Shown: positions 7,439 through 48,484 of the stretch, in pieces
How the letters are laid out: every line of letters starts with the position of its first letter
How positions within the stretch are numbered: the stretch's first letter is position 1
Assembly (NCBI GenBank): GCA_051294905.1
Contig: CM119372.1
Location: 40,550,001-40,598,484 of the forward strand
DNA: 48,484 nucleotides
Direction of reading: 5' to 3'
Source: Botryllus schlosseri
Lineage: Eukaryota
Notes under the pieces: model-generated
What the model saw: only the letters and a program-made list of their open reading frames with translations
What the model was told of the DNA's origin: nothing
Database searches by the model: none
Translations under genes and position numbers: made by a program

Positions 7439-7456
7439 AGCGCCCGAGTTTTGGCC

Positions 7457-16400: not shown

Positions 16401-17990
16401 AGTCGTATGTACATTCGCTGGACACGGCGCAATCTTCGAAAGCCAGCAATCGAACCAATCTTATCTACAGACCCTGAACAAACTATCATTGGCCAGCTGA
16501 TAATACCGTCTGTTTCGGTCCGTTCCTGCGTAATGTGAAATATCGAATCACGATGCAGGCCAAAACTCACATTTTATTTCTCAAAATTATCTAGCAAGCT
16601 CGGCTACTAGGAAGCCTGTTTATCAAATACGACTAATTGAAAAATCCGAGCGCACTCGGAGCATTTTGTAATGCGGACACACCTTAACACAATCAATATG
16701 TAAGATGATTGTATTACGGGCGCTTAAGTAGTTTGTGAGTCGTATGTACATTTGCTGGACACGGCGCAATCTTCGGAAGCCAGCAATCGAACCAATCTTA
16801 TCTACAGACCCTGAACAAACCATCATTGGCCAGCTGATAATACCGTCTGTTTAGATCGGTTCTTGCGTAATGTGAAAAATCGAATCACGATGCAGGCCAA
16901 AACTCACATATTATTTCTCAAAATTATCTAGCAAGCTCGGCTCCTAGGAAGCCTGCTTATCAGGTACGACAAATTGAAAAATCAGAATGCACCAGGAGCA
17001 TTTTGTAATGCGGACTCGCCTTAAGACAATCAATATGTAAGGTGATTGTATTACGGGCGCTTAAGTAGTTCGTGAGTCGTATGTACATTCGCTGGACACG
17101 GCGCAATCTTCGGAAGCCAGCAATCGAACCAATCTTATCTACAGACCCTGAACAAACTATCATTGGCCAGCTGATAATACCGTCTGTTTAGTTCCGTTCC
17201 TGCGTAATGTGAAATATCGAATCACGATGCAGGCCAAAACTCACAGATTATTTCTCAAAATTATCTAGCAAGCTCGGCTACTAGGAAGCCTGCTTATCAG
17301 ATACGACTGATTGAAAAATCCGAGCGCACTCGGAGCATTTTGTAATGCGGACTCACCTTAACACAATCAATATGTAAGGTGATTGTATTACAGGCGCTTG
17401 ATTAGTACTTGAGTCGTATGTCCTTTTACTGGACACGGCGCAATCTTCGGAAGCCAGCAATCGAACCAATCTTATCTAGAGTCCGTGAACAAACCTTCAT
17501 TGGCCCGCGGATAATACTGTCTGTTTAGGTCCGTTCCTGCGTAATGTGAAATATCGAATCACGATGCAGGCCATAACTCACATATTATTTCTCAAAATTA
17601 TCTAGCAAGCTCGGCTACTAGGAAGCCTGCTTATCAAATACGACTAATTGAAAAATCCGAGCGCACTCGGAGCATTTTGTAATGCGGACTCACCTTAACA
17701 CAATCAATATGTAAGATGATTGCATTACGGGCGCTAAAGTAGTTCGTGAGTCGTATGTACATTCGCTGGACACGGCGCAATCTTCGAAAGCCAGCAATCG
17801 AACCAATCTTATCTACAGACCCTGAACAAACTATCATTGGCCAGCTGATAATACCGTCTGTTTCGGTCCGTTCCTGCGTAATGTGAAATATCGAATCACG
17901 ATGCAGGCCAAAACTCACATTTTATTTCTCAAAATTATCTAGCAAGCTCGGCTACTAGGAAGCCTGTTTATCAGATACGACTAATTGAAA
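7457..17990 (-). repeat. 16-monomer higher-order repeat (~5389-5390 bp), about two near-identical copies
   Basis: Diagnostic monomer variants recur at a constant offset: 7529/12918, 8202/13591, 9885/15275, 10559/15949, 12244/17634. Confidence 0.93.
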
Positions 17991-23900: not shown

Positions 23901-26900
23901 GGCCAGCTGAAAACACCGTATTTTAGGTCGGTTCTTGCGTAATGTTAAAAATCGAATCACGTTGCAGGCCAAAACTCACATATTATTTCTCAAAATTATC
24001 TAGCAAGCTCGGCTACTAGGAAGCCTGCATATCAGATACGACTAATTGAAAAATCCGAGCGCACTCGGAGCATTTTGTAATGCGGACTCACCTTAACACA
24101 ATCAATATGTAAGGTGATTGTATTACGGGCGCTTGATTAGTACTTGAGTCGTATGTCCTTTTACTGGACACGGCGCAATCTTCGGAAGCCAGCAATCGAA
24201 CCAATCTTATCTAGAGTCCGTGAACAAACCTTCATTGGCCAGCTGATAATACCGTCTGTTTAGGTCCGTTCCTGCGTAATGTGAAATATCGAATCACGAT
24301 GCAGGCCATAACTCACATATTATTTCTCAAAATTATCTAGCAAGCTCGGCTACTAGGAAGCCTGCTTATCAAATACGACTAATTGAAAAATCCGAGCGCA
24401 CTCGGAGCATTTTTTAATGCGGACTCACCTTAACACAATCAATATGTAAGATGATTGCATTACGGGCGCTTAAGTAGTTCGTGAGTCGTATGTACATTCG
24501 CTGGACACGGCGCAATCTTCGGAAGCCAGCAATCGAACCAATCTTATCTACAGACCTTGAACAAACTATCATTGGCCAGCTGATAATACCGTCTGTTTAG
24601 GTCCGTTCCTGCGTAATGTGAAATATCGAATCACGATGCAGGCCAAAACTCACATATTATTTCTCAAAATTATCTAGCATGCTCGGCTCCTAGGAAGCCT
24701 GCTTATCAGGTACGACAAATTGAGAAATCCGAGCGCACCAGGAGCATTTTGTATTGCGGACTCACCTTAACACAATCAATATGTAAGGTGATTGTATTAC
24801 GGGCACTTGAGTAGTTGGTGAGTCGTATGTCCTTTTACTGGATACGGCGCAATCTTAGGAAGCCAGCAATCGAACCAATCTTATCTACAGACCCTGAACA
24901 AACCATCATTGGCCATCTGATAACACCGTCTGTTTAGATCGGTTCTTGCGTAATGTGAAAAATCGAATCACGATGCAGGCCAAAACTCACATTTTATTTC
25001 TCAAAATTATCAATATGTAAGGTGATTGTATTACGGGCGCTTAAGTAGTTCGTGAGTCGTATGTACACTCGCTGGACACGGCGCAATCTTCTAAAGCCAG
25101 CAATCGATCCAATCTTATCTACAGACCCTGAACAAACTATCATTGGCCAGCTGATAATACCGTCTGTTTAGGTCCGTTCTTGCGTAATGTGAAAAATCTA
25201 ATCACGATGCAGGCCAAAACTCACATATTATTTCTCAATATTATCTAGCAAGCTCGGCTACTAGGAAGCCTGCTTCTCAGATACGACTAATTGAAAAATC
25301 CGAGCGCACTCGGAGCACATTGTAATGCGGACTCACCTTAACACAATCAATATGTAAGGTGATTGTATTACGGGCGCTTGATTAGTACTTGAGTCGTATG
25401 TCCTTTTACTGGACACGGCGCAATCTTCGGAAGCCAGCAATCGAACCAATCTTATCTAGAGTCCGTGAACAAACCTTCATTGGCCCGCTGATAATACCGT
25501 CTGTTTAGGTCCGTTCCTGCGTAATGTGAAATATCGAATCACGATGCAGGCCAAAACTCACATATTATTTCTCAAAATTATCTAGCATGCTCGGCTCCTA
25601 GGAAGCCTGCTTATCAGGTACGACAAATTGAAAAATCCGAGCGCACCAGGAGCATTTTGTATTGCGGACTCACCTTAACACAATCAATATGTAAGGTGAT
25701 TGTATTACGGGCACTTGAGTAGTTCGTGAGTCGTATGTCCTTTTACTGGACACGGCGCAATCTTCGAAAGCCAGCAATCGAACCAATCTTATCTACAGAC
25801 CCTGAACAAACTATCATTGGCCAGCTGATAATACCGTCTGTTTCGGTCCGTTCCTGCGTAATGTGAAATATCGAATCACGATGCAGGCCAAAACTCACAT
25901 TTTATTTCTCAAAATTATCTAGCAAGCTCGGCTACTAGGAAGCCTGTTTATCAGATACGACTAATTGAAAAATCCGAGCGCACTCGGAGCATTTTGTAAT
26001 GCGGCTTAACACAATCAATATGTAAGATGATTGTATTACGGGCGCTTAAGTAGTTTGTGAGTCGTATGTACATTTGCTGGACACGGCGCAATCTTCGGAA
26101 GCCAGCAATCGAACCAATCTTATCTACAGACCCTGAACAAACTATCATTGGCCAGCTGATAATACCGTCTGTTTAGATCGGTTCTTGCGTAATGTGAAAA
26201 ATCGAATCACGATGCAGGCCAAAACTCACATATTATTTCTCAAAATTATCTAGCAAGCTCGGCTCCTAGGAAGCCTGCTTATCAGGTACGACAAATTGAA
26301 AAATCCGAGCGCACTCGGAGCATTTTGTAATGCGGACTCACCTTAAGACAATCAATATGTAAGGTGATTGTATTACGGGCGCTTAAGTAGTTCGTGAGTC
26401 GTATGTACATTCGCTGGACACGGCGCAATCTTCGGTAGCCAGCAATCGAACCAATCTTATCTACAGACCCTGAACAAACCATCATTGGCCAGCTGATAAT
26501 ACCGTCTGTTTCGGTCCGTTCCTGCGTAATGTGAAATATCGAATCACGATGCAAGCCAAAACTCACATATTATTTCTCAAAATTATCTAGCATGCTCGGC
26601 TCCTAGGAAGCCTGCTTATCAGGTACGACAAATTGAAAAATCCGAGCGCACCAGGAGCATTTTGTATTGCGGACTCACCTTAACACAATCAATATGTAAG
26701 GTGATTGTATTACGGGCACTTGAGTAGTTCGTGAGTCGTATGTCCTTTTACTGGACACGGCGCAATCTTCGAAAGCCAGCAATCGAACCAATCTTATCTA
26801 CAGACCCTGAACAAACTATCATTGGCCAGCTGATAATACCGTCTGTTTAGATCGGTTCTTGCGTAATGTGAAAAATCGAATCACGATGCAGGCCAAAACT

Positions 26901-29149
26901 CACATATTATTTCTCAAAATTATCTAGCAAGCTCGGCTCCTAGGAAGCCTGCTTATCAGGTACGACAAATTGAAAAATCCGAATGCACCAGGAGCATTTT
27001 GTAATGCGGACTCGCCTTAAGACAATCAATATGTAAGGTGATTGTATTACGGGCGCTTAAGTAGTTCGTGAGTCGTATGTACATTCGCTGGACACGGCGC
27101 AATCTTCGGTAGCCAGCAATCGAACCAATCTTATCTACAGACCCTGAACAAACTATCATTGGCCAGCTGATAATACCGTCTGTTTAGTTCCGTTCCTGCG
27201 TAATGTGAAATATCGAATCACGATGCAGGCCAAAGCTCACATATTATTTCTCAATATTATCTAGCAAGCTCGGCTACTAGGAAGCCTGCTTCTCAGATAC
27301 GACTAATTGAAAAATCCGAGCGCACTCGGAGCATTTTGTAATGCGGACTCACCTTAACACAATCAATATGTAAGGTGATTGTATTACGGGCGCTTGATTA
27401 GTACTTGAGTCGTATGTCCTTTTACTGGACACGGCGCAATCTTCGGAAGCCAGCAATCGAACCAATCTTATCTAGAGTCCGTGAACAAACCTTCATTGGC
27501 CCGCTGATAATACCGTCTGTTTAGGTCCGTTCCTGCGTAATGTGAAATATCGAATCACGATGCAGGCCAAAACTCACATATTATTTCTCAAAATTATCTA
27601 GCATGCTCGGCTCCTAGGAAGCCTGCTTATCAGGTACGACAAATTGAAAAATCCGAGCGCACCAGGAGCATTTTGTATTGCGGACTCACCTTAACACAAT
27701 CAATATGTAAGGTGATTGTATTACGGGCACTTGAGTAGTTCGTGAGTCGTATGTCCTTTTACTGGACACGGCGCAATCTTCGAAAGCCAGCAATCGAACC
27801 AATCTTATCTACAGACCCTGAACAAACTATCATTGGCCAGCTGATAATACCGTCTGTTTCGGTCCGTTCCTGCGTAATGTGAAATATCGAATCACGATGC
27901 AGGCCAAAACTCACATTTTATTTCTCAAAATTATCTATCAAGCTCGGCTACTAGGAAGCTTGTTTATCAGATACGACTAATTGAAAAATCCGAGCGCACT
28001 CGGAGCATTTTGTAATGCGGACTCACCTTAACACAATCAATATGTAAGATGATTGTATTACGGGCGCTTAAGTAGTTTGTGAGTCGTATGTACATTTGCT
28101 GGACACGGCGCAATCTTCGGAAGCCAGCAATCGAACCAATCTTATCTACAGACCCTGAACAAACTATCATTGGCCAGCTGATAATACCGTCTTTTTCGGT
28201 CCGTTCCTGCGTAATGTGAAATATCGAATCACGATGCAGGCCAAAACTCACATATAATTTCTCAAAATTATCTAGCATGCTCGGCTCCTAGGAAGCCTGC
28301 TTATCAGGTACGACAAATTGAAAAATCCGAGCGCACTCGGAGCATTTTGTAATGCGGACTCACCTTAACACAATCAATATGTAAGATGATTGTATTACGG
28401 GCGCTTGATTAGTTCGTGAGTCGTATGTACATTCGCTGGACACGGCGCAATCTTCGAAAGCCAGAAATCGATCCAATCTAATCTACAGAACCTGAACAAA
28501 CCATCATTGGCCAGCTGATAATACCGTCTGTTTAGATCGGTTCTTGCGTAATGTGAAAAATCGAATCACGATGCAGGCCAAAACTCACATATTATTTCTC
28601 AAAATTATCTAGCAAGCTCGGCTCCTAGGAAGCCTGCTTATCAGGTACGACAAATTGAAAAATCCGAATGCACCAGGAGCATTTTGTAATGCGGACTCGC
28701 CTTAAGACAATCAATATGTAAGGTGATTGTATTACGGGCGCTTAAGTAGTTCGTGAGTCGTATGTACATTCGCTGGACACGGCGCAATCTTCGGAAGCCA
28801 GCAATCGAACCAATCTTATCTACAGACCCTGAACAAACTATCATTGGCCAGCTGATAATACCGTCTGTTTAGTTCCGTTCCTGCGTAATGTGAAATATCG
28901 AATCACGATGCAGGCCAAAGCTCACAGATTATTTCTCAAAATTATCTAGCAAGCTCGGCTACTAGGAAGCCTGCTTATCAGATACGACTGATTGAAAAAT
29001 CCGAGCGCACTCGGAGCATTTTGTAATGCGGACTCACCTTAACACAATCAATATGTAAGATGATTGTATTACGGGCGCTTAAGTAGTTTGTGAGTCGTAT
29101 GTACATTCGCTGGACACGGCGCAATCTTCGAAAGCCAGCAATCGAACCA
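7457..29149 (-). repeat. 337-bp satellite DNA array, reverse-orientation block (~64 monomers), possibly centromeric/pericentromeric
   Basis: Reverse complement of the same monomer (CGATGCAGGCCAAAACTCAC...) with a 337-bp period up to the telomere junction at 29149. A centromeric role is inference only. Confidence 0.97.
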
Positions 29150-29620
29150 GGGTTAGGGTTAGGGTTAGGGTTAGGGTTAGGGTTAGCGTTAGGGTTAGGG
29201 TTAGGGTTAGGGTTAGGGTTAGGGTTAGGGTTAGGGTTAGGGTTAGGGTTAGGGTTAGGGTTAGGGTTAGGGTTAGGGTTAGGGTTAGGGTTAGGGTTAG
29301 GGTTAGGGTTAGGGTTAGGGTTAGGGTTAGGGTTAGGGTTAGGGTTAGGGTTAGGGTTAGGGTTAGGGTTAGGGTTAGGGTTAGGGTTAGGGTTAGGGTT
29401 AGGGTTAGGGTTAGGGTTAGGGTTAGGGTTAGGGTTAGGGTTAGGGTTAGGGTTAGGGTTAGGGTTAGGGTTAGGGTTAGGGTTAGGGTTAGGGTTAGGG
29501 TTAGGGTTAGGGTTAGGGTTAGGGTTAGGGTTAGGGTTAGGGTTAGGGTTAGGGTTAGGGTTAGGGTTAGGGTTAGGGTTAGGGTTAGGGTTAGGGTTAG
29601 GGTTAGGGTTAGGGTTAGGG
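29150..29620 (+). repeat. Internal (TTAGGG)n telomeric tract, ~78 repeats
   Basis: Pure TTAGGG run with one TTAGCG variant (C at 29187), in the same orientation as the terminal telomere. Confidence 0.99.
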
Positions 29621-29885
29621 ACTTTATTGGCGCCTTCATTTTGCGTTAAAACGTGTACGAGGTCTCATGATAATTCTCCGCCATCGTGAGCTGGTGGAGC
29701 CGCTCATGAATTTCGTACGGAGTGTAAGTGCGTCGCGCTCTCGACGTCGTGAAGGGGCCTTAGACGTATCATGATTGGCGCCACGATTTCGGAAGATTTA
29801 CCATTATTAATTCCGAAGCACGTTCAAACCTCTTTCCCCATGAATGACGATCAAAATAAAGAGTCAGAGAACAAAACTCTGTTTA

Positions 29886-32169
29886 TCAAGATTTATTATT
29901 GATTAGGAACGACTTGATCAATCTTAATTTTGAACGCATTTGTTGAAAAGTCAAATAGCATTCTGATTTATATTCGTGAACAATTTTGCTCAGTAGAGGT
30001 CCGCTGTCGTCATAAAATGCACGCAGGCGAACGTCTTTGATCAATTTCACGACTTGCTCGTTTGTCAAAGTGGTCTTGCTACCTCTCTGCCGGTTACATA
30101 TCGAGTCCGCCAGCTCCTCGACGTCATTACCTGCGCGTTTGAACGTGATCAGACATGCAATTCAGACGGTAATAGCAAATAGATTACCCTCATTTGTGAC
30201 GATCTTTGTGTCGCGGTCCGTAGCGATTAGAGGCTCCGAGCTAGATCCGTTTGAATGCATGTCATCGTCGGTGTCTAAAGTGGTGTCGTCCTTTCTTTCC
30301 GCCTCTGGTTGAACCGTGCTCGGGGCTGAAGTCGGTGTGACGATTTGTGTGTCCTGTTCCGTAGCGATTAAAGGCACTGAGGTAGCTGCGTTTGCTTGCA
30401 TATCATCCTCGTTGTGAAAATTTGTATCGTGCCTTGCTTGCGGATCTGGTTCAGCTGTAGTCGGGGTTGCGGTTGGTGATTCAAATGATCCTTAATTAAC
30501 AGTTGCGATCAGATGTATGACGTCGTAGTTTATTATGACTTTACATACCTTCATTCTGAGGAACGCTTGACGCGGCCAATTCCGAATATAGGTCGTCATG
30601 TGTACTTGACATGGCCATCCCGAGTAATTTCTTGCATAGAATCGCTCCGGCAGCCGCCCTCTTGGTTCTGCCTATTCCGTCATAGTGTCGACTCGCGATC
30701 TCTGTACTGTGGGACGAGGACATCGCGACATGATATTGTCCGATGTCGTCCAGCGAACTGGCCATCGTCGCGACTATTTTACGCAAATGCTGGTACGTGA
30801 GGCAGACTTCGTGGCGACCGAGATATTCCCCGACACAAACCGATAAATTTAGGAAGGGCTTGCCGTTGGAGTTCCGTAACGCTACTTCTTCTCGTGAAAA
30901 ATCCAAGTCTGGATTCGTTTGCTTGCAAATCTGAAATCGAAAAGAGGCTGGAGACCGCTCCATTACACGTTCACATCTTCGTAACACCTACCTGTTTGAA
31001 TCGTTCACAGTCTTGTCGACTCATTACTAACAAGCCCTGATTCGAAGGGCACTTGTTGTGGTCGACCTGTACGACTAACATTTCGGGATCGTTCACAGAA
31101 CGGACGGCGTGGCTAAGCTCGTATCCGGTCACTCTACGAAAATATGACAGTCTCGTGCCACTTTCAAGTCCAACCTGGATGATTGTCGCGGCCAAGCAAT
31201 CCCGCACGTTTTCGTTTGTTAACGGTTGATGGAGGTCTCTTTTAAACGTTTCGCTTTTGATCATTCTAGAAAAACACGCATATTAAACCTAAAACTTTAC
31301 GATATTTTAACCTTAGCACGAACCTTTTGATATTCGGCCAATTTTTATTGATGACGTCCATGTCGAAGGACAAACGTTTCTCGTGCTGCCGCTTTCTTCT
31401 TTTATTGGTCGCTCTAGAGTACGTCGCGATGATTTGTATGGCTCTCAGTTGTTTGTCCGGTGAAACCACTTTTTCCAACAATGCCGGATGGTGCATACGC
31501 GCAAATTCAAGAAATACCTTTAGCGACGTCAGGGTGTTGAAAATAGTGCTCGCGGACAGTGTCCCGTCGGCGTTAGAAATGTACGTGACTAATTCTTCCG
31601 GCTCGTCAACCACATACTTCTTGAACACTGATTTTAGTTTGCTGACGACCATTTTGGTGTTGGCTTCGTCGAGCGCTTGCACTTGGCGATGCCTTTCGTA
31701 CAGGGAGAGTAGCTGTAATAAACGGATCTGCATTATTTCGGTGAAAAGTGACACATTACCATCAGAGTTACTCACGCTTGAAAAGTCGGACTCGAAGGTC
31801 AACTTTTTAAAGTTTTCCTGGTAGGTCTCGCAACCTATCCCGAAGCCGTCGCGTATTTTATCGGAATGAATAATCCTCCAGTGGGTTGCTATATATGCCG
31901 TGGCTACTGATCTAGAGCAGAGACCACACCAAGACCGTGGACGACATTGCTTGGGATCGCGCAAGTAGCGAGCAGACCTGTGACACGTAATATTTATTTG
32001 CTTCTGGTTGTTATAAATAAGCCAACAACGATCTTACTCTTTAATTCTGTCCACGGACCACTTATGAACGTTACGAAGATGCCTCGTTCTATGACCTTTG
32101 GTTTGTATATGGCAAACTTGACACCTGTCGAGTCTGATTCTTTTCGTGGGTCGAATTGCAACGGGATCG
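29886..32169 (-). CDS. Spliced gene for a C2H2 zinc-finger + tyrosine recombinase (phage-integrase fold) protein, >=666 aa; start codon unresolved
   Basis: Exons 32169-32038, 31977-31312, 31265-30992, 30930-30549, 30490-30188 and 30130-29886 are joined in frame by GT-AG introns 32037-31978 (60 nt), 31311-31266 (46), 30991-30931 (61), 30548-30491 (58) and 30187-30131 (57). Zinc fingers: CQVC-x10-HLRNVH and CGLC-x11-HWRIIH. Core-binding-like segment: LSASTIFNTLTSLKVFLEF. Catalytic-type motifs: LESGTR (R), VVQVDHNK (K), TYQHLRKIVAT (R), VAMSSSHSTEIASRHY (H, Y). Confidence 0.85.
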
Positions 32170-32245
32170 CTACAATAGAAATATTAAAAATCGCGCCATG
32201 TTGAAGTTACCGGAGCAGAGAGAGTTATGGACCGAAAACCAACGA

Positions 32246-34630
32246 TTTTGGACTCGGTAAAAGCTATTTCGCCGAATCGCGCCACGCTTAAGCATAGGGA
32301 TTTCGAAATTAGAAGACATTTTCACTCACCCGACGACTTGAGATTCCATTATATGTTCTTGATGCACGGTAATCCACTCCAAACGTCCTTCTAACTCGAC
32401 AGTTCAATAGCATATGAGCGCGCGGCGAGAATTATCTGGAAAAAGATATTCCCGGGTCATTATTACGTCATAGATGGCCCGAAAATTTTTTTATCGAAAA
32501 TCGGTCTGGGGCCCGCCGAAACACGTTTTTTGACGATTTTTATGCATTTTGGGCGGTTGTTGACACTGTTTAAGGTCCTAAATCTCGCTGTGCAGGTAGC
32601 ATGCCAAGTCTACAAGACGCCTAAACCCGTTTTACGCGTAGCCGGCACGCACAACTACCAATATAGACGGTGCAGTACCCGCCGAAACGCTGTTTTGGAC
32701 AATTATTTTAATTTTGACCGACAATTGCGGAGCCGTCGTGCGGTTTGCGGCCCTAAATCTCGCTGTGCAGGTCGCGTGCCAAGTCTACAAGACGCCTAAA
32801 CCCGTTTTACGCGTAGCCGGCACGCACAACTACCAATATAGACGGTGCAGTACCCGCCGAAACGCTGTTTTGGACAATTATTTTAATTTTGACCGACAAT
32901 TGCGGAGCCGTCGTGCGGTTTGCGGCCCTAAATCTCGCTGTGCAGGTCGCGTGCCAAGTCTACAAGACGCCTAAACCCGTTTTACGCGTAGCCGGCACGC
33001 ACAACTACCAATATAGACGGTGCAGTACCCGCCGAAACGCTGTTTTGGACAATTATTTTAATTTTGACCGACAATTGCGGAGCCGTCGTGCGGTTTGCGG
33101 CCCTAAATCTCGCTGTGCAGGTCGCGTGCCAAGTCTACAAGACGCCTAAACCCGTTTTACGCGTAGCCGGCACGCACAACTACCAATATAGACGGTGCAG
33201 TACCCGCCGAAACGCTGTTTTGGACAATTATTTTAATTTTGACCGACAATTGCGGAGCCGTCGTGCGGTTTGCGGCCCTAAATCTCGCTGTGCAGGTCGC
33301 GTGCCAAGTCTACAAGACGCCTAAACCCGTTTTACGCCTAGCCGGCACGCACAACTACCAATATAGACGATGCAGTACCCGCCGAAACACGGTTTTGGAC
33401 TCGGTAAAAGCTATTTCGCCGAATCGCGCCACGCTAAAGTATGTGGATTTCACAACAAGAAGAAATTTTCACTCACCCGGTGACTTGAAATTCCAATAAA
33501 TGTTCCTGATGCACGGTAATCCTCTCACAACGTCCTCCCAACGCGACAGTTCAATAGCATATGAGCGCGCGGCGAGAATTATCTGGAAAAAGATATTCTC
33601 GGGTCATTATTACGTCATAGAGGGCCAGAAAATTTTTTTCTCGAAAATCGGTCTGGGGCCCGCCGAAACACGTTTTTTGACGATTTTTATGCCTTTTGGG
33701 CGGTTGTTGACACTCTTTGCGGCTCTAAATCTCGCTGTGGTTGTCGCGTGCCAAGTCTACAGGACGCCTCAACCCGTTTTACACGTAGCCGGCACGCACA
33801 ACTACCAATATAGACGATGCAGTACCCGCCGAAACGCTGTTTTGGACAATTATTTTAATTTTGACCGACAATTGCGGAGCGGCCGTGCTCTTTGCGGCTC
33901 TAAATCTCGCTGTGGTTGTCGCGTGCCAAGTCTACAAGACGCCTCAACCCGTTTTACGCGTAGCCGGCACGCACAACTACCAATATAGACGATGCAGTAC
34001 CCGCCGAAACACTGTTTTGGACAATTATTTTAATTTTGACCGACAATTGCGGAGCCGTCGTGCTCTTTGCGGCTTTAAATCTCGCTGTGGTTGTCGCGTG
34101 CCAAGTCTACAAGACGCCTCAACCCGTTTTACGCGTAGCCGGCACGCACAACTACCAATATAGACGGTGCAGTACCCGCCGAAACGCTGTTTTGGACAAT
34201 TATTTTAATTTTGACCGACAATTGCGGAGCCGTCGTGCGGTTTGCGGCCCTAAATCTCGCTGTGCAGGTCGCGTGCCAAGTCTACAAGACGCCTAAACCC
34301 GTTTTACGCCTAGCCGGCACGCACAACTACCAATATAGACGATGCAGTACCCGCCGAAACACGGTTTTGGACTCGGTAAAAGCTATTTCGCCGAATCGCG
34401 CCACGCTAAAGTATGTGGATTTCACAACAAGAAGAAATTTTCACTCACCCGGTGACTTGAAATTCCAATAAATGTTCCTGATGCACGGTAATCCTCTCAC
34501 AACGTCCTCCCAACGCGACAGTTCAATAGCATATGAGCGCGCGGCGAGAATTTTCTGAAAAAAGATATTCCCGGGTTATTATTACGTCATAGAGGGCCGG
34601 AAAATTTTTTTCCCGAAAATCGGTCTGGGC
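32246..34630. repeat. Composite tandem repeat: a ~300-bp block alternating with runs of 175-bp subrepeats (units of 1147 and 972 bp, plus a third block)
   Basis: The block TTTTGGACTCGGTAAAAGCTATTTCGCCGAATCGC starts at 32246, 33393 and 34365. The 175-bp period is visible in ORF repeats 32714/32889/33064/33239 and 33861/34036/34211. Confidence 0.95.
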
Positions 34631-34669
34631 CGATTTTTTTGAATTTTTTCGGGTTTTTGACCGACATTG

Positions 34670-35510
34670 CGGAGCCGTGACACTGTTTAAGGTCCCAAAT
34701 CTCGCTGTGGTTGTCTGGTGCAGGGCCTACAACAGGGACAGACCGCTTTTACGGGCCTCCGACAAGGACAGGGAGCGATATCGACGAAGCAGCACGCGCC
34801 GAAACACGGTTTTCGACCATTTTTGGAATTTTGCGCGACAATTACGGGGCCGTGACACTGTTTGAGGTCCTGAATTTCGCTGTGGTTGTCTGGTGCAGGG
34901 CCTACAACAGGGACAGACCGCTTTTACGGGTCTCCGACAAGGACAGGAAGCGATATCGACGAAGCAGCACGCGCCGAAACACGGTTTTCGACCATTTTTG
35001 GAATTTTGCGCGACAATTACGGGGCCGTGACACTGTTTGAGGTCCTGAATTTCGCTGTGGTTGTCTGGTGCAGGGCCTACAACAGGGACAGACCGCTTTT
35101 ACGGGCCTCCGACAAGGACAGGGAGCGATATCGACGAAGCAGCACGCGCCGAAACACGGTTTTCGACCATTTTTGGAATTTTGCGCGACAATTACGGGGC
35201 CGTGACACTGTTTGAGGTCCTGAATTTCGCTGTGGTTGTCTGGTGCAGGGCCTACAACAGGGACAGACCGCTTTTACGGGTCTCCGACAAGGACAGGAAG
35301 CGATATCGACGAAGCAGCACGCGCCGAAACACGGTTTTCGACCATTTTTGGAATTTTGCGCGACAATTACGGGGCCGTGACACTGTTTGAGGTCCTGAAT
35401 TTCGCTGTGGTTGTCTGGTGCAGGGCCTACAACAGGGACAGACCGCTTTTACGGGCCTCCGACAAGGACAGGGAGCGATATCGACGAAGCAGCACGCGCC
35501 GAAACACGGT
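34670..35510. repeat. Second, diverged 175-bp subrepeat family (~5 copies, alternating A/B variants)
   Basis: 175-bp period (34711/34886/35061/35236/35411). Variants GGGCCTCC..GGGAGCG and GGGTCTCC..GGAAGCG alternate. Shares TCGCTGTGGTTGTC and CGCCGAAACAC with the first 175-bp family. Confidence 0.95.
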
Positions 35511-35745
35511 TTTTCGCGATTTTTCCCAATTTTTTCGGGTTTTTGACCGGCGATTGCGGAGCAGTCACACTGATTCAGGGCCTGAATATCGCTGCGGTGG
35601 TCGGGTGCAGGGCTTACAAGACGCGGCAACCTCTCTTACTGGTCTCCCACACGTACAATATGGGGATTTCGGACTTGGTCGTTTCTCGCACTTCGTCCAT
35701 ACCTTAACATAGGGCCCATACCATAACACGGGCGGACCGCCTATA

Positions 35746-36625
35746 CTTGCTCGGATCGGTTCCAAACTTCGTGTGAGGGGTCTCATGGATGACTTTTTGC
35801 CGGCAAAAAAAATCAACTTTTGCCGAGGAAAATTTTGGACTTAGTCGTTTTTCGACCTCGCCCATACTTTAACATGGGGGCCTACGGTAGGTCGGCCGAA
35901 CTTGCTCGGATCGGTTCCAAACTTCGTGTGAGGGGTCTCGTGGATGACTTTTTGCCGGCAAAAAAAATCAACTTTTGCCGAGGAAAATTTTGGACTTAGT
36001 CGTTTTTCGACCTCGCCCATACTTTAACATGGGGGCCTACGGTAGGTCGGCCGAACTTGCTCGGATCGGTTCCAAACTTCGTGTGAGGGGTCTCGTGGAT
36101 GACTTTTGGCCGGCAAAAAAAATCAACTTTTGCCGAGGAAAATTTTGGACTTAGTCGTTTTTCGACCTCGCCCATACTTTAACATGGGGGCCTACGGTAG
36201 GTCGGCCGAACTTGCTCGGATCGGTTCCAAACTTCGTGTGAGGGGTCTCGTGGATGACTTTTTGCCGGCAAAAAAAATCAACTTTTGCCGAGGAAAATTT
36301 TGGACTTAGTCGTTTTTCGACCTCGCCCATACTTTAACATGGGGGCCTACGGTAGGTCGGCCGAACTTGCTCGGATCGGTTCCAAACTTCGTGTGAGGGG
36401 TCTCGTGGATGACTTTTGGCCGGCAAAAAAAATCAACTTTTGCCGAGGAAAATGTTGGACTTAGTCGTTTTTCGACCTCGCCCATACTTTAACATGGGGG
36501 CCTACGGTAGGTCGGCCGAACTTGCTCGGATCGGTTCCAAACTTCGTGTGAGGGGTCTCGTGGATGACTTTTGGCCGGCAAAAAAAATCAACTTTTGCCG
36601 AGGGAAATTTTGGACTTGGTCGTTT
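35746..36625. repeat. 155-bp tandem repeat (~5.7 copies)
   Basis: CTTGCTCGGATCGGTTCCAAACTTCGTGTGAGGGG starts at 35746, 35901, 36056, 36211, 36366 and 36521. Degenerate copies recur at ~38300-38560. Confidence 0.96.
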
Positions 36626-36629
36626 TTCC

Positions 36630-38280
36630 CGGGGGTTCGGACTTAGAAAAAATCCGAGTATTGTCGAAATTTTTTTTTCTCCGATTCCGATTTCCCGCAC
36701 ATCGGCGGACTCGTGGGAGCCCGTAGATCGCGAATACACCGTTTTCCGGGCGCTGGGAGGCCGTACGAGAAAGAAAAATTTTCACACTCGCTTTGGCATC
36801 AGGAGTCCATTTCGACTATCCGCGTAGCTCTAGGACGCACAGGAGCCGAGATACGAGTTTTTTGCGAATAGCTCGGCTCCTGTTCGGGCCAGACACACGC
36901 GGGACCCCTCGTTGGAAGCGGCGCAGCGAGACGAATCCGGGAAAAAAAAAAATTATCGAAATCGGACTTGCCGGAGCCGAGATATCTCCGGTTGAAGCGC
37001 GCCAAAATCGGACCTTTGACCGGCTCTGGAGGCCGAGCCGTTTGTCGGATCGGGATAATTCCTTTGCGGGGCGTCTTCAAACAGTGCGGGGAACGCGCCC
37101 GTGTGGTTTTCAGGCGAAAAAATTTTTTTTCGGACTTTAACTTTTTTATGATCTCGGCCCCGTGTTAAAGTATGGGGATTTCGGACTTGGAAAAAATCCG
37201 ACGAGGTCGAAAATTTTTTTTCTCCGATTTCGATTTCCAGCACACCGACGGACTCGTGGGAGCTCGTAGACCCCCGCTAGCCACTTTTCCGGTCGCCAGG
37301 AGGCCGCACGAGAAAGAAAAATTTTCACCCTTGCTTTGGCATCAGGAGTCCATTTCGACTATGCACGTAGCTCTAGGATGCACAGGAGCCGAGATACGAG
37401 TTTTTCGTGAATAGCTCGGCCCCTGTTCGGACCAGACCCACGCTGGACCCCTCGTTGGAAGCGGCGCAGCGAGACGAATCCGGGAAAAAAAAATTTTTGA
37501 AATCGGACACACCGGAGCCGAGATATCCCCGGTTAAAGCCCGCCGAAATCGGACCTTTGACCGGCTCTGGAGGCCGAGCCGTTTGTCGGATCGGGATAAT
37601 TCCTTTGCGGGGCGTCTTCAAACAGTGCGGGGAACGCGCCCGTGTGGTTTTCAGGCGAAAAAATTTTTTTTCGGACTTTAACTTTTTTATGATCTCGGCC
37701 CCGTGTTAAAGTATGGGGATTTCGGACTTGGAAAAAATCCGACGAGGTCGAAAATTTTTTTTCTCCGATTTCGATTTCCCGCACACCGACGGACTCGTGG
37801 GAGCTCGTAGACCCCCGCTAGCCACTTTTCCGGTCGCCAGGAGGCCGCACGAGAAAGAAAAATTTTCACCCTTGCTTTGGCATCAGGAGTCCATTTCGAC
37901 TATGCACGTAGCTCTAGGATGCACAGGAGCCGAGATACGAGTTTTTCGTGAATAGCTCGGCCCCTGTTTGGACCAGACCCACGCTGGACCCCTCGTTGGA
38001 AGCGGCGCAGCGAGACGAATCCGGGAAAAAAAAAATTTTCGAAATCGGACACACCGGAGCCGAGATATCCCCGGTTAAAGCCCGCCGAAATCGGACCTTT
38101 GACCGGCTCTGGAGGCCGAGCCGTTTGTCGGATCGGGATAATTCCTTTGCGGGGCGTCTTCAAACAGTGCGGGGAACGCGCCCGTGTGGTTTTTAGGTGA
38201 AAAATTTTTTTTCGGACTTTAACTTTTTCACGATCTCGGCCCCATGTTAAAGTATGGGGATTTCGGACTTGGAAAAAATC
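36630..38280. repeat. 541-bp tandem repeat (3 copies, the first more diverged)
   Basis: Identical ORF pairs 37146/37687 and 37172/37713; GCTTTGGCATCAGGAGTCCATTTCGACTAT occurs three times. Confidence 0.95.
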
Positions 38281-38734
38281 CGAGACCGAGTTGAGAGAAA
38301 GTTAAAGTCCGAGCGCCCATTCTTTAACATGGGAGCCTACGGTAGATCGGCTGGACTCGGTCCGATCGACTCCAAACTTCGTGTGCGGGGTCTTATGGAT
38401 GACTTTTGGCCGGCGAAAAAGATCGACTTTTTTCGAGGAAGATTTCGGACTTAGTCGTTTTTCGCACCTCGCCCATACCTTAACATAGGGCCCATACCTT
38501 GACACGGGCGGAACGCCTATAGTTGGTCGGATCGGCCCCAAACTTCGTGTGTGGGGTCCCGTGGGAGGCATTTTCGAAAAGTTTTTTTTTAATTATTTTT
38601 TATTTTTTCGGAAAAAAAAATTTATTTTCCGGGAAAAAAAATTTTCTTGGCCGGCGAAAATTTTCCGGCCCCCCGGCCCGGGTGCGACCCTGAAAAACGA
38701 CTAAGTAGAAAAAAGTCACCAGGGTTTCCGAAAA

Positions 38735-38756
38735 ATTACTAATATAGGAAGGGGCG
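38735..38756 (+). promoter_or_regulatory. Possible RNA polymerase I initiation-site-like motif (TTACTAATATAGGAAGGGG)
   Basis: Lies at the boundary between A/T-tract-rich spacer-like repeats and a GC-rich region containing rRNA fragments. Resembles the TATA(G)G-rich rDNA start motifs of plants and insects. Position and motif resemblance only. Confidence 0.3.
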
Positions 38757-40704
38757 CGCGCCCGGCGCCTGACGGGAGGCCGGGAGCGTAACGTTGAATC
38801 TGCCGGCGAGAGGGGCTGTCGGCGCGGCGGAATTGATCCGTCGTCACCGGTTGGAGCGAAAGCATATGGGGGTGCGAAGCCAGCACTAATCACGGGTCGG
38901 CGAACCTCGAGTCGCGGGTTTAAACGTTGCGTGTCGCCAATCGCTGCATAGAGCGAGCTTGCCCGGTATGCCGTAGACGGCGGGATATGGATGATAGTGA
39001 CCCTACACCTGTCATACAGCCATGAGGCATACCGGAGAGCGGACTCAATAAATGCTGCGCGGACGCGACGCGTTGTACTTCGGGCCTCGCGGCCCAGACC
39101 CTTCCTACGTAGCCTTGCGGCGTCGCCGAGGAGAGAATCCGGCGTCGAGAAGCCGGCAGACCGGTGTGTCGCACTCCGGCGAGCCGGCGGAGCTAAATTA
39201 TGAGCTGGGGCAGCAAAAATTCAGGCGTCGGTCGAGGGGGTAGGCCGGCGTCGCGCGAGTACGCGGCGTGGACGCGAAACGGCGGATACGCCTTTTAATC
39301 GAGAGCGTAAGTACCTACGCGGGCGCCGAGAACGGCGGCGCCGGTGTCGGAGGTAGCCGACACCCTGGTCCCCGCCCAGGGGCGGACCTCGCAGTGCGCG
39401 AGATATATCATTCAAGTGTCTACCCAAGGCATGGTAAGTGCCTTATGAACGTGCCCCGCCGCTAGAAGTGAAATTCGTCGTTCGGCGGTGGTACGAACAG
39501 TTGCGGGAACGCTCGCCAAGGGCGTTTTCATTAATCGAGAGCGAAGGTCGGTGCGTGGGCCGTAATCCCGCGCGTTGTCCAGATACGTTGCGGATGACGA
39601 TGAGACGACTCTTGACGGTGGATACTCTCCAACCGCGAATCGTGCGTGTGGAGGCCTTCGCGGGCCGCCCACGGTAAGGACAAACCTGAATGTTTGGGCG
39701 TCGGGTCGCAAGGCTCGTCGTTCTACGGTTTACGAGCGCTGTCGTCAATGCTCGGGGTCCGGGCCCTCGCCGTTTGTCGACCCGGTCGTCGCTATCGCGC
39801 CACCGTGCGCGGTACGCTCGGCCGGAGCGACTTTCGGCTTCTCGGGCGCGGCTCCGTGGCGATTGGCGGCGGTCAGAATCGAAGTGGCGAAGAGAGTTCA
39901 AATCCAGGCGGGACCGTCTTGAGGATAAACGATAAGGTCCTGTCGTCAGCTCGGGGTCGCTTTGTGTCGGGCGCGGGGGCGCGCTTCGGCGTCGGCGGGG
40001 CATCGCGCCCTGCCGCGTCGTTGCGCGCGAGTCGCACCGTCGAATGGGCTTCCCGGGGCGGGCCACGACCTGCTCGCGGTCGATGGTCTAGGTAAGGTTG
40101 TCGCGAAAGTTCGTCCGACTCCGGTTACGATTCGGGAACTGCGGTCCGTACGGCCCGTGAGTCCCGCGCTCTGCCGGAAGCGTCCGTTCGCCTCGCGACT
40201 CCTTGACCTCTCACGAGAACACGGACCTATGAACGATTATAGCGTGAACGCAAGTTGTCGGGCGAAACGAGAACCCGCAGCGATACTAGATGCCGCTCCT
40301 GCCGATTGCGGTCGGTCGGTCGGTGTTGTGAAAGAGCGTTTACGCTTGCCCGAAAGATGGTGGATAGGCGTCGCGGCCAGCCGCGCGCCTCTCGCGACGT
40401 GGCCTTCCTGGAGCCGATACATGCGATTGAGCGCCGACCGTCCGCGGAAGGCGTGCAGTTATCGAAAATGCTCCGGATAACCACGCGTAAACGGCAACTT
40501 GGGTGTTTCGTACACCGCTGCGACCGGATCAGGGTTCGATCCTAGAGAGGGAGCGCGAAATTGTGGATGGTGGTGCATAAATCGAAAGGCGCCTGTCAGG
40601 CGTCGCGTCGCCAAGCGCGTCGCATGGTGAAACCGAACGAGGTGTAAAATCATTTGTGAGCTGGGTGCACGTGACGAAAATCAGATATATGCAATTTAAG
40701 CGTG

Positions 40705-42159: not shown

Positions 42160-42653
42160 TAGCAGTGCGGGTTTTCTGTACTGAGAAATTGACTCTGGGT
42201 AAAGCAGCTCTGCCCAGTGCTCTGAATGTCAAAGTGAAGAAATTCAGCCGAGCAAGCGAAGGATGGGGCCGTTCATCAGCCCTGAATGGTGAGCACGAGT
42301 AGAAGCAGTGCCGCGAAACCGAAAGATGGTTAACAGTACGGGTACTCCGCACTGAGAAAATGACTCTGGGTAATGCGAGCTCTGCCCAGTGCTCTGAATG
42401 TCAAAGTGAAGAAATTCAGCCGAGCAAGCGAAGGATGGGGCCGTTCATCAGCCCTGAATGGTGAGCACGAGTAGAAGCAGTGCCGCGAAACCGAAAGATG
42501 GTTAACAGTACGGGTACTCCGCACTGAGAAAATGACTCTGGGTAATGCGAGCTCTGCCCAGTGCTCTGAATGTCAAAGTGAAGAAATTCAGCCGAGCAAG
42601 CGAAGGATGGGGCCGTTCATCAGCCCGGAATGGTGAGCACGAGTAGAAGCAGT
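42160..42653. repeat. 172-bp tandem repeat (~3 copies), each carrying a 38-nt conserved 28S rRNA segment
   Basis: TCTGCCCAGTG at 42209, 42381 and 42553 (period 172). Confidence 0.95.
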
Positions 42654-43420: not shown

Positions 43421-43487
43421 CGCCTAGGTGGTTTAGAACGAAAAAGAAAGTAGTCGAAAAACTCCAACTGTTTTCGACCTCGACCCA

Positions 43488-45275
43488 TGTTAAGAGATAG
43501 GGAGATTTTCATGATAGGCGCCAGCTCATGATGTCGCCACCAGATACGACTTGGTCGTTTTTCGACCTAGCCCACACAAAGTAACATAGACGGGCATTTC
43601 AGACTTGCTCATATCATCTCCAGAATCCTGTGTGGGCTCTCGTTGGTGACTTTTGGCCGGCAAAAAATTGGAACTTTAGCCGGAAAAAATTCCGGACTCA
43701 TGATAGGCGCCACGTATTGAAGACGCAAATTTCGTGTCATGTTGAACCGTTGAACGCTACGGGAGCAGTAGAACGCGACCAGGGGGTTTGGAACAACGAC
43801 CCACGCATTCCTCACGGTCGAATTCACCTACGATAGGGATTTCGGACCTGGTCGATTTTCATGATGGGCGCCAGTCATGATGGCGCCATCAGATTAAGCA
43901 TAAGACCTGATCGATTTTCATGATCGGCGCCACTCATGATCGTCGCCACGAATTCAAGCATACGCCAATACTGTGACATTTCGACTTTATCCGGAAAAAT
44001 TCCGGACTCCGTCACGCTTTCGTGATCGGCTCCAGGTATCGAAGGCGCCAAATTCCGGGTATCGAAGGCACCAAACGCATGTCTGTTAAGAGATAGGGAG
44101 ATTTTCATGATAGGCGCCAGCTCATGATGTCGCCACCAGATACGACTTGGTCGTTTTTCGACCTAGCCCACACAAAGTAACATAGACGGGCATTTCAGAC
44201 TTGCTCATATCATCTCCAGAATCCTGTGTGGGCTCTCGTTGGTGACTTTTGGCCGGCAAAAAATTGGAACTTTAGCCGGAAAAAATTCCGGACTCATGAT
44301 AGGCGCCACGTATTGAAGACGCAAATTTCGTGTCATGTTGAACCGTTGAACGCTACGGGAGCAGTAGAACGCGACCAGGGGGTTTGGAACAACGACCCAC
44401 GCATTCCTCACGGTCGAATTCACCTACGATAGGGATTTCGGACCTGGTCGATTTTCATGATGGGCGCCAGTCATGATGGCGCCATCAGATTAAGCATAAG
44501 ACCTGATCGATTTTCATGATCGGCGCCACTCATGATCGTCGCCACGAATTCAAGCATACGCCAATACTGTGACATTTCGACTTTATCCGGAAAAATTCCG
44601 GACTCCGTCACGCTTTCGTGATCGGCTCCAGGTATCGAAGGCGCCAAATTCCGGGTATCGAAGGCACCAAACGCATGTCTGTTAAGAGATAGGGAGATTT
44701 TCATGATAGGCGCCAGCTCATGATGTCGCCACCAGATACGACTTGGTCGTTTTTCGACCTAGCCCACACAAAGTAACATAGACGGGCATTTCAGACTTGC
44801 TCATATCATCTCCAGAATCCTGTGTGGGCTCTCGTTGGTGACTTTTGGCCGGCAAAAAATTGGAACTTTAGCCGGAAAAAATTCCGGACTCATGATAGGC
44901 GCCACGTATTGAAGACGCAAATTTCGTGTCATGTTGAACCGTTGAACGCTACGGGAGCAGTAGAACGCGACCAGGGGGTTTGGAACAACGACCCACGCAT
45001 TCCTCACGGTCGAATTCACCTACGATAGGGATTTCGGACCTGGTCGATTTTCATGATGGGCGCCAGTCATGATGGCGCCATCAGATTAAGCATAAGACCT
45101 GATCGATTTTCATGATCGGCGCCACTCATGATCGTCGCCACGAATTCAAGCATACGCCAATACTGTGACATTTCGACTTTATCCGGAAAAATTCCGGACT
45201 CCGTCACGCTTTCGTGATCGGCTCCAGGTATCGAAGGCGCCAAATTCCGGGTATCGAAGGCACCAAACGCATGTC
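43488..45275. repeat. 596-bp telomere-adjacent tandem repeat, exactly 3 copies
   Basis: TGTTAAGAGATAGGGAG starts at 43488, 44084 and 44680; the third copy ends ...AAACGCATGTC at 45275, directly before AAGGGTTAGGG. Confidence 0.97.
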
Positions 45276-45276
45276 A

Positions 45277-48200
45277 AGGGTTAGGGTTAGGGTTAGGGTT
45301 AGGGTTAGGGTTAGGGTTAGGGTTAGGGTTAGGGTTAGGGTTAGGGGTTAGGGTTAGGGTTAGGGTTAGGGTTAGGGTTAGGGTTAGGGTTAGGGTTAGG
45401 GTTAGGGTTAGGGTTAGGGTTAGGGTTAGGGTTAGGGTTAGGGTTAGGGTTAGGGTTAGGGTTAGGGTTAGGGTTAGGGTTAGGGTTAGGGTTAGGGTTA
45501 GGGTTAGGGTTAGGGTTAGGGTTAGGGTTAGGGTTAGGGTTAGGGTTAGGGTTAGGGTTAGGGTTAGGGTTAGGGTTAGGGTTAGGGTTAGGGTTAGGGT
45601 TAGGGTTAGGGTTAGGGTTAGGGTTAGGGTTAGGGTTAGGGTTAGGGTTAGGGTTAGGGTTAGGGTTAGGGTTAGGGTTAGGGTTAGGGTTAGGGTTAGG
45701 GTTAGGGTTAGGGTTAGGGTTAGGGTTAGGGTTAGGGTTAGGGTTAGGGTTAGGGTTAGGGTTAGGGTTAGGGTTAGGGTTAGGGTTAGGGTTAGGGTTA
45801 GGGTTAGGGTTAGGGTTAGGGTTAGGGTTAGGGTTAGGGTTAGGGTTAGGGTTAGGGTTAGGGTTAGGGTTAGGGTTAGGGTTAGGGTTAGGGTTAGGGT
45901 TAGGGTTAGGGTTAGGGTTAGGGTTAGGGTTAGGGTTAGGGTTAGGGTTAGGGTTAGGGTTAGGGTTAGGGTTAGGGTTAGGGTTAGGGTTAGGGTTAGG
46001 GTTAGGGTTAGGGTTAGGGTTAGGGTTAGGGTTAGGGTTAGGGTTAGGGTTAGGGTTAGGGTTAGGGTTAGGGTTAGGGTTAGGGTTAGGGTTAGGGTTA
46101 GGGTTAGGGTTAGGGTTAGGGTTAGGGTTAGGGTTAGGGTTAGGGTTAGGGTTAGGGTTAGGGTTAGGGTTAGGGTTAGGGTTAGGGTTAGGGTTAGGGT
46201 TAGGGTTAGGGTTAGGGTTAGGGTTAGGGTTAGGGTTAGGGTTAGGGTTAGGGTTAGGGTTAGGGTTAGGGTTAGGGTTAGGGTTAGGGTTAGGGTTAGG
46301 GTTAGGGTTAGGGTTAGGGTTAGGGTTAGGGTTAGGGTTAGGGTTAGGGTTAGGGTTAGGGTTAGGGTTAGGGTTAGGGTTAGGGTTAGGGTTAGGGTTA
46401 GGGTTAGGGTTAGGGTTAGGGTTAGGGTTAGGGTTAGGGTTAGGGTTAGGGTTAGGGTTAGGGTTAGGGTTAGGGTTAGGGTTAGGGTTAGGGTTAGGGT
46501 TAGGGTTAGGGTTAGGGTTAGGGTTAGGGTTAGGGTTAGGGTTAGGGTTAGGGTTAGGGTTAGGGTTAGGGTTAGGGTTAGGGTTAGGGTTAGGGTTAGG
46601 GTTAGGGTTAGGGTTAGGGTTAGGGTTAGGGTTAGGGTTAGGGTTAGGGTTAGGGTTAGGGTTAGGGTTAGGGTTAGGGTTAGGGTTAGGGTTAGGGTTA
46701 GGGTTAGGGTTAGGGTTAGGGTTAGGGTTAGGGTTAGGGTTAGGGTTAGGGTTAGGGTTAGGGTTAGGGTTAGGGTTAGGGTTAGGGTTAGGGTTAGGGT
46801 TAGGGTTAGGGTTAGGGTTAGGGTTAGGGTTAGGGTTAGGGTTAGGGTTAGGGTTAGGGTTAGGGTTAGGGTTAGGGTTAGGGTTAGGGTTAGGGTTAGG
46901 GTTAGGGTTAGGGTTAGGGTTAGGGTTAGGGTTAGGGTTAGGGTTAGGGTTAGGGTTAGGGTTAGGGTTAGGGTTAGGGTTAGGGTTAGGGTTAGGGTTA
47001 GGGTTAGGGTTAGGGTTAGGGTTAGGGTTAGGGTTAGGGTTAGGGTTAGGGTTAGGGTTAGGGTTAGGGTTAGGGTTAGGGTTAGGGTTAGGGTTAGGGT
47101 TAGGGTTAGGGTTAGGGTTAGGGTTAGGGTTAGGGTTAGGGTTAGGGTTAGGGTTAGGGTTAGGGTTAGGGTTAGGGTTAGGGTTAGGGTTAGGGTTAGG
47201 GTTAGGGTTAGGGTTAGGGTTAGGGTTAGGGTTAGGGTTAGGGTTAGGGTTAGGGTTAGGGTTAGGGTTAGGGTTAGGGTTAGGGTTAGGGTTAGGGTTA
47301 GGGTTAGGGTTAGGGTTAGGGTTAGGGTTAGGGTTAGGGTTAGGGTTAGGGTTAGGGTTAGGGTTAGGGTTAGGGTTAGGGTTAGGGTTAGGGTTAGGGT
47401 TAGGGTTAGGGTTAGGGTTAGGGTTAGGGTTAGGGTTAGGGTTAGGGTTAGGGTTAGGGTTAGGGTTAGGGTTAGGGTTAGGGTTAGGGTTAGGGTTAGG
47501 GTTAGGGTTAGGGTTAGGGTTAGGGTTAGGGTTAGGGTTAGGGTTAGGGTTAGGGTTAGGGTTAGGGTTAGGGTTAGGGTTAGGGTTAGGGTTAGGGTTA
47601 GGGTTAGGGTTAGGGTTAGGGTTAGGGTTAGGGTTAGGGTTAGGGTTAGGGTTAGGGTTAGGGTTAGGGTTAGGGTTAGGGTTAGGGTTAGGGTTAGGGT
47701 TAGGGTTAGGGTTAGGGTTAGGGTTAGGGTTAGGGTTAGGGTTAGGGTTAGGGTTAGGGTTAGGGTTAGGGTTAGGGTTAGGGTTAGGGTTAGGGTTAGG
47801 GTTAGGGTTAGGGTTAGGGTTAGGGTTAGGGTTAGGGTTAGGGTTAGGGTTAGGGTTAGGGTTAGGGTTAGGGTTAGGGTTAGGGTTAGGGTTAGGGTTA
47901 GGGTTAGGGTTAGGGTTAGGGTTAGGGTTAGGGTTAGGGTTAGGGTTAGGGTTAGGGTTAGGGTTAGGGTTAGGGTTAGGGTTAGGGTTAGGGTTAGGGT
48001 TAGGGTTAGGGTTAGGGTTAGGGTTAGGGTTAGGGTTAGGGTTAGGGTTAGGGTTAGGGTTAGGGTTAGGGTTAGGGTTAGGGTTAGGGTTAGGGTTAGG
48101 GTTAGGGTTAGGGTTAGGGTTAGGGTTAGGGTTAGGGTTAGGGTTAGGGTTAGGGTTAGGGTTAGGGTTAGGGTTAGGGTTAGGGTTAGGGTTAGGGTTA

Positions 48201-48484
48201 GGGTTAGGGTTAGGGTTAGGGTTAGGGTTAGGGTTAGGGTTAGGGTTAGGGTTAGGGTTAGGGTTAGGGTTAGGGTTAGGGTTAGGGTTAGGGTTAGGGT
48301 TAGGGTTAGGGTTAGGGTTAGGGTTAGGGTTAGGGTTAGGGTTAGGGTTAGGGTTAGGGTTAGGGTTAGGGTTAGGGTTAGGGTTAGGGTTAGGGTTAGG
48401 GTTAGGGTTAGGGTTAGGGTTAGGGTTAGGGTTAGGGTTAGGGTTAGGGTTAGGGTTAGGGTTAGGGTTAGGGTTAGGGTTAGA
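45277..48484 (+). repeat. Terminal telomere (TTAGGG)n, ~534 repeats
   Basis: TTAGGG run to the end of the sequence, with the G-rich strand running toward the end; one TTAGGGG variant at ~45341-45347. Confidence 0.99.

Follow-up and report, generated by a model that had tools for sequence, protein, structure and literature searches.

Layout of the chromosome end

The sequence analysed in this study (the window) is a 48,484-nt stretch of the Botryllus schlosseri genome (NCBI GenBank assembly GCA_051294905.1, contig CM119372.1, positions 40,550,001 to 40,598,484 of the forward strand; coordinates below are counted from its first letter). It is a chromosome end in which a 15.7-kb block of unique and repeat DNA (29621-45276) lies between two TTAGGG tracts. 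An internal tract of approximately 78 units, including one TTAGCG variant, flanks the block on the left (29149..29620, forward strand), and a terminal tract of approximately 534 units follows it on the right and reaches the window end (45277..48483, forward strand). Because telomere runs lie on both sides of the block, its inverted ends match each other and a tyrosine recombinase (YR) gene is predicted inside it, the block likely represents a mobile element that targets telomeres for insertion. The host flank is a 337-bp satellite array (1..29149, unstranded), which is cut within a unit and joined to the telomere repeats in the xAGGG phase.

Probable tyrosine recombinase gene

A probable YR gene was identified on the reverse strand at 29886..32169, 266 bp from the left end of the element, on the basis of a spliced open frame and a motif set whose tyrosine codon lies at 30684-30682. 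The gene model contains five to six GT-AG introns of 46-63 nt and an open frame of 645-666 amino acids (aa), for which a start codon was not found; a contig of run X1 lacks the first modelled intron. The predicted protein is composed of a C2H2-like finger, a SAM-like domain, an R-K-(Q)-R-H-Y motif set, an acidic linker and a helical C-terminus. Its candidate catalytic residues, assigned by eye and by spacing, are R283, K316 (a candidate), R386, H410 and Y419 in model numbering. The R-R-H-Y spacing of 103/24/9 compares with 94-119/23-31/9-10 in the 8 of 12 bacterial YRs that parsed, so that the R-K-H-R-H/W-Y set of tyrosine recombinases is present with spacing in the bacterial range, save for Q383. 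The gene appears to be under purifying selection, as 13 of 24 coding variants are synonymous versus 22% expected (p = 6e-4, with 40 of 69 variants listed).

Similarity searches yielded only two homologues, at 83% and 43% identity; no match was found in PDB sequences or IMG/VR, and a protein search among longer proteins returned none. In hhalign, 0 of 60 column shuffles reached the scores of the profile of the predicted protein. Its ESM Atlas neighbours, which are a lead only, comprise animal clusters at 0.95-0.97, a PF00589 cluster (37% of members) and a ResT/TelK catalytic-domain cluster both at 0.92, and SAM clusters at 0.77. Two single exons modelled with AlphaFold had pLDDT values of 46 and 50, and fold searches gave no meaningful match; with exon models of such low confidence and uninformative fold searches, a reading of the C-terminus as a Myb/telobox domain is unsupported.

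Several of these results weaken the YR call: Q383 replaces the H of the H-x-x-R motif, the C-terminal motifs are out of register in the HH comparisons, whose probabilities are 3% and 0.6%, the predicted protein was outscored in hmmsearch by 1 of 500 shuffles, there is no significant match in Pfam or PHROG, and the selection test used 40 automatically chosen variants out of 69. The profile evidence for a YR is weak but consistent, and, together with the motif set and its spacing, suggests that the gene probably encodes one.

Inverted ends and their box families

Both ends of the block are degenerate inverted sequences, one on the left (29620..29789, forward strand) and one on the right (45106..45275, forward strand), the latter including two 11-mers, at 45233 and 45256, and a terminal GTC. 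When the first 170 nt are aligned globally with the reverse complement of the last 170 nt, the alignment begins at the terminal GAC of either side; its score of 70 was reached by 2 of 2,000 shuffles and by none of 7,712 interior or satellite windows. Inward from each end the same order of elements was observed, namely a GGCGCC box, a GGAGCC-N2-TCAYGA box and a TCATGA-N-TGGCGCC box. On the left these occupy 29627-29637, 29696-29709 (GGAGCC-N2-TCATGA) and 29769-29783 on the forward strand, and the third box type lies 149/156 nt inside the left end and 146/153 nt inside the right end.

The boxes are confined to particular parts of the window. The TCATGATNGGCGCCA motif has 29 matches with up to three mismatches, of which all 26 with up to two mismatches fall in the first 165 bp of the element or in its right-terminal repeats, and the other three in 172-bp repeats. 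The 11-mers are one member of this box family: allowing up to two mismatches, their motif matches 16 times window-wide, once at the left end, 15 times in the right-terminal repeats and nowhere else. Because the alignment runs from the terminal GAC, the box order is shared and the boxes are confined to the ends, the two termini (GAC...GTC, degenerate, approximately 165 bp) are evolved matching ends of one element.

The 596-bp terminal repeats

The last 1,788 bp of the element are three 596-bp units that are 100% identical (43488..45275, forward strand) and rich in TCATGA and GGCGCC boxes; both right-hand 11-mers are present three times, one copy per unit. The boundary of the unit coincides with the end of the terminal GTC, and at the internal junctions GTC is followed bluntly by the unit start. 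That start adjoins a look-alike of the terminal junction that matches at 11 of 14 positions with an offset of 4 nt, one of three look-alikes in the window, found post hoc. The resemblance (11/14) is seen at 43483-43496 and 44076-44092, and, compared with an in-register crossover, 4 nt (TGTC-TGTT) are duplicated at the internal junction. The simplest history, inferred post hoc, is that the GTC end is the older one and was later joined once to an internal pseudo-site, which fits a top-strand cut after GTC, at the left edge of the GTC-AAGG-GAC dyad described below. That the repeats break right after GTC supports a defined element end.

Junctions with the telomere repeats

The original prediction, made from this sequence, regarded the joined ends as an att-like site with 11-bp inverted arms around an AGGG core shared with the telomere. 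Every base that it quoted for the two ends is present. The right end reads GAAGGCGCCAA (45233-45243), GAAGGCACCAA (45256-45266), ACGCATGTC (45267-45275), A (45276) and AGGG (45277-45280), followed by perfect TTAGGG, and the left end reads from a final TTAGGG up to 29620 through ACTTTA (29621-29626) to TTGGCGCCTTC (29627-29637). The left junction is thus TAGG/GAC (29616..29622, forward strand) and the right junction GTC/AAGG/G (45273..45280, forward strand); the AGGG at 29617-29620 and that at 45277-45280 are the left and right copies of the proposed core. Joining the ends creates the inner GTC-AAGG-GAC dyad as claimed. The inverted arms likewise exceed chance: among 20,000 shuffles, 97 gave an inverted match of at least 10 of 11 within the last 30 nt, and 7 gave a full match (11 of 11) within the last 55 nt.

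The arms do not, however, have the geometry of a core site. In the joined site they lie 20 nt apart, and AGGG is off-centre, with 10 nt to one arm and 6 nt to the other, whereas typical YR sites are described as inverted repeats of 11-13 bp with a spacer of 6-8 bp (PMC3212892). The best dyad with a 4-8-nt spacer in the joined site matches at only 6 of 11 or 7 of 13 positions. Because of the 20-nt spacing, the off-centre position relative to AGGG and the repetition of the box family at both ends, the 11-mers are ruled out as core-type sites and look like accessory-type sites. What stood of the att-like reading is that two evolved ends of one element with a probable YR gene give a plausible circle junction when joined; what did not is the role of the 11-bp repeats as core-type arms.

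The first right-hand repeat, AAGGG instead of TAGGG, had been read as what a crossover inside the shared AGGG would leave. In a single copy the AGGG has no statistical weight, because a core of 0-5 nt can be defined for any pair of end phases in a 6-nt array. As for AAGGG, the base preceding the telomere match can by definition not be T, and the armless satellite-to-telomere junction at 29149 likewise starts with xAGGG. The same phase would also fit telomerase healing, for which (AGGGTT)n is one of the predicted starts, although such starts are found in only approximately 10% of neotelomeres (PMC11293586). For these reasons AAGGG is compatible with a crossover and was rejected as evidence for one.

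Proposed mode of insertion

On balance, we consider it probable that the YR circularises the element by joining its ends and inserts the circle into a TTAGGG unit, in a Crypton-like manner, through an overlap of 4 or 6 nt with the dyad at its centre. This reading is favoured by the layout between telomere tracts, the matching box-bearing ends, the unit boundary at GTC and the intact spliced gene with its YR-like spacing of motifs. In addition, telomerase cannot make a telomere-to-unique junction whose G-strand runs into the element, so the left junction must have formed by recombination or end-joining. The recombinase would cut at the edges of this short overlap, which would be either 4 nt (AAGG versus telomeric TAGG) or 6 nt (CAAGGG versus one TTAGGG unit) and would tolerate a mismatch. 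The 11-mers and the TCATGA and GGCGCC boxes would serve the assembly of the complex as binding sites of the arm or accessory type, and would not be core sites. Since TTAGGG has no dyad, recognition of the target side would be asymmetric and might fall to the zinc finger, the C-terminal domain or a telomere protein of the host. The 596-bp repeat would go back to an event in which the cut GTC end was joined aberrantly to a look-alike site inside the element. A more specific version, in which a circle of 15.7 kb is integrated site-specifically into TTAGGG by the YR of an active, non-viral chordate element, through a mismatch-tolerant overlap of 4-6 nt and with lambda-like arm boxes, is offered only tentatively.

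Several observations weigh against integration of such a circle. A circle or head-to-tail junction is not among the observations, and the ends are readable in one copy only. The inverted register is not unique: the direct orientation of the ends scores 56.5 versus 70 for the inverted one, and other registers within the 596-bp repeats reach 70-73, since the boxes recur and are nearly palindromic. The joined ends do not contain a recombination site of the lox/FRT/dif type, with inverted repeats of 11-13 bp set 6-8 bp apart, and the AGGG phase at the junction carries no information. Moreover, homology-guided repair near an eroded end could also give the 596-bp junction.

The copies seen in sequencing runs bear on whether the block is real. 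Its left 2.8 kb are partly present in 20 of the 24 runs listed, which come from nine studies, with at least half of the words of this segment in 11 of them, and are covered in runs X1, X2 and X5. No RNA run is listed among those that contain the segment, and the 0 aligned reads of RNA run X21 are uninformative. In record 9 of run X2, a 2,604-nt contig extends 260 letters past the first aligned base at the left end. A contig that passes 260 letters through a perfect hexamer array is not expected, so the flank is possibly non-telomeric, and this copy may have either a non-telomeric left flank or an end-to-end junction. A scan with the left-end 17-mer gave 35 metagenome matches and one viral match, none of which (0 of 36) extends or matches the element by blastn; they are taken as chance. 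An assembly artefact as the source of the internal telomere tract or of the triple 596-bp repeat is very hard to believe: the complete identity of the three units and the lack of a read record seen across the junctions would fit it, but the presence of the left 2.8 kb in so many runs does not, and a misassembly cannot yield mirrored ends.

A block with long telomere tracts on both sides could alternatively spread among chromosome ends by homologous recombination through these tracts, either like Y' elements or as telomere-bearing circles like those of HHV-6, its ends having been fixed once long ago and its YR being inactive at the site today. The absence of a canonical dyad is in line with this, as are two reports on related situations: Bao et al. 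left this route open for Nimav-1_LVa (PMC7016691), and in Kawato et al. reads run end to end across a telomere tract (PMC10871703). We nevertheless regard it as unlikely, given that it leaves unexplained both the repeat boundary at GTC and the conserved, inverted, box-bearing ends beside an intact gene apparently under purifying selection. Still less probable is that the att-like site is over-read, with telomerase healing or capture of a break at the right end and, independently of it, end-joining at the left. The AGGG start is a predicted healing phase (PMC11293586) and is common to the armless satellite junction, and the right arm occurs in every 596-bp unit and not only at the end. Both junctions, however, lie 6-10 nt from inverted boxes found nowhere else, the end alignment starts at the terminal base, and a random break would fall at the unit boundary in an estimated 1-2 of 596 cases.

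The gene might also belong to a domesticated or ResT/TelK-like enzyme that resolves, fuses or rebuilds chromosome ends and does not move an element. A dyad at a telomere would be a suitable site, the gene is spliced and seemingly under purifying selection, and the ResT/TelK catalytic-domain cluster is among the Atlas neighbours; yet its score of 0.92 ties with ordinary integrases and the ends are flanked by ordinary telomere repeats instead of hairpins, which makes such a role quite doubtful, slightly more so than healing with end-joining. A DDE transposon with terminal inverted repeats (TIRs) and target duplication was rejected, because the flanks outside GAC...GTC (TTAGG versus AAGGG) are not duplicates and no DDE gene was recognised.

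Comparison with known systems

Cryptons have terminal direct repeats of 4-6 bp and a proposed circular form (PMC3212892), and CryptonV families are microsatellite-specific (Kapitonov and Jurka, 2012, as cited in PMC8869645). The B. schlosseri element resembles both in carrying a probable YR as its only identified gene, in a simple-repeat target and in a proposed circular intermediate (PMC3212892; PMC8869645). Only a YR-like gene was identified in it, and neither a reverse transcriptase nor a DDE transposase, although no individual searches were made with its other open reading frames of at least 150 aa; the AGGG at both ends is formally a 4-bp terminal direct repeat, which can always be defined inside a 6-nt array. 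Different from Cryptons, which are described as having no TIRs, it has degenerate inverted ends of approximately 165 bp that begin at the terminal base, and it is 15.7 kb long, carries mostly non-coding tandem-repeat and rRNA-derived cargo and resides in a true terminal TTAGGG array. Because of the inverted ends, the element is not classed as a Crypton here; by description it would work like Cryptons and CryptonV elements.

The YRs of nimaviral elements at telomeres combine a C2H2 finger with a SAM-like domain (Kawato et al., PMC10871703). These elements, including Nimav-1_LVa (PMC7016691), share with the present one a host telomere repeat on both sides, the layout of a C2H2-like finger and a SAM-like domain, and an incomplete catalytic set; the likeness is one of target type and domain layout. 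Endogenous nimaviruses differ in being approximately 280-580 kb in length with viral genes and a TAACC/GGTTA target, whereas here a 15.7-kb element with one gene lies in TTAGGG of a chordate host. An endogenous nimavirus is ruled out by this comparison, as it would bring core genes and hundreds of kilobases. While the boundaries of Nimav-1_LVa are undetermined according to PMC7016691, those of the present element can be read to the base.

Mismatched overlaps are recombined by the YRs of Tn916 and CTnDOT (PMC5812530), in which, as proposed here, a short overlap may mismatch its target. In contrast to these elements and to phage lambda, the present element is eukaryotic and intron-bearing and has no excisionase or conjugation genes; the parallel is a working analogy only. 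Lambda attP contains arm-type sites, to which the putative accessory boxes here, several on either side of the proposed crossover, are comparable. Yeast Y' elements are blocks between telomere tracts at chromosome ends that are moved by homologous recombination. The same position, between telomere tracts at chromosome ends, is taken by HHV-6 and Marek's disease virus (MDV) according to PMC7016691. Both Y' elements and these viruses differ from the present element in moving through homology of telomere repeats, with neither a YR nor inverted box-bearing ends.

For telomere-inserting YR elements, PMC7016691 leaves open whether entry is site-specific or occurs by homology through telomere repeats, the boundaries of Nimav-1_LVa not being fixed. 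An element this small, with an intact gene, ends that can be read to the base and a specific junction predicted from them, makes this question directly testable. If the proposed mode is true, the element would provide the att anatomy of a eukaryotic telomere-targeting YR at base level, a natural large-cargo integrase for the vertebrate-type telomere repeat TTAGGG, and a source of chromosome-end rearrangement in a chordate. Among the papers listed in literature searches, which do not extend to Repbase Reports (CryptonV) and subscription journals, none is on a TTAGGG-inserted YR element in tunicates, and the words "recombinase" and "TTAGGG" have no occurrence in the B. schlosseri genome paper PMC12448946.

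Cargo and flanking satellite

Most of the element is tandem repeat, with units of 175, 155, 541, 106/373/479, 172 and 596 bp; the blocks of 175, 155 and 541 bp occupy 32242..38326 (unstranded). Besides the YR-like gene, all open reading frames of at least 150 aa in the element are located in repeats or in the rRNA-like tract. The element holds rDNA-derived fragments. A decayed 18S rRNA-like segment lies on the forward strand at 39461..39715 (approximately 70% identity over 88 nt; nhmmer E 3e-8), and each of three 172-bp repeats contains a 28S rRNA piece of 45-54 nt with 87-100% identity (42206..42600, forward strand), the two being in rDNA order and orientation. Three of 40 rRNA windows exceeded a z of 4, of which two are solid matches, whereas the remaining one (z 4.1) does not follow the rDNA order; the data thus show fragments and not a whole decayed rDNA unit. 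The 28S piece in 42206-42600 is well kept, although the adjoining rRNA-like sequence is barely recognisable, which may be caused by recent capture or by selection.

Upstream of the 18S-like segment and after long A/T runs, TACTAATATAGGAAGGGG at 38738-38755 resembles the consensus of an RNA polymerase I start site, and the repeat blocks before it resemble an rDNA spacer. Just past the 28S-bearing repeats there are long perfect GC-rich hairpins (42700-42790 and 42890-42940), the second of which is followed by a T run, in a terminator-like arrangement. Eukaryotic rDNA units are also contained in three bacterial genome records (L037, L045 and L046, the first with two group I introns), where they represent assembly contamination.

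In the host flank, the orientation of the 337-bp satellite apparently flips near 7450 (7438-7457), where the GC and AT skews change sign, and a phase break of the array was observed near 25010.

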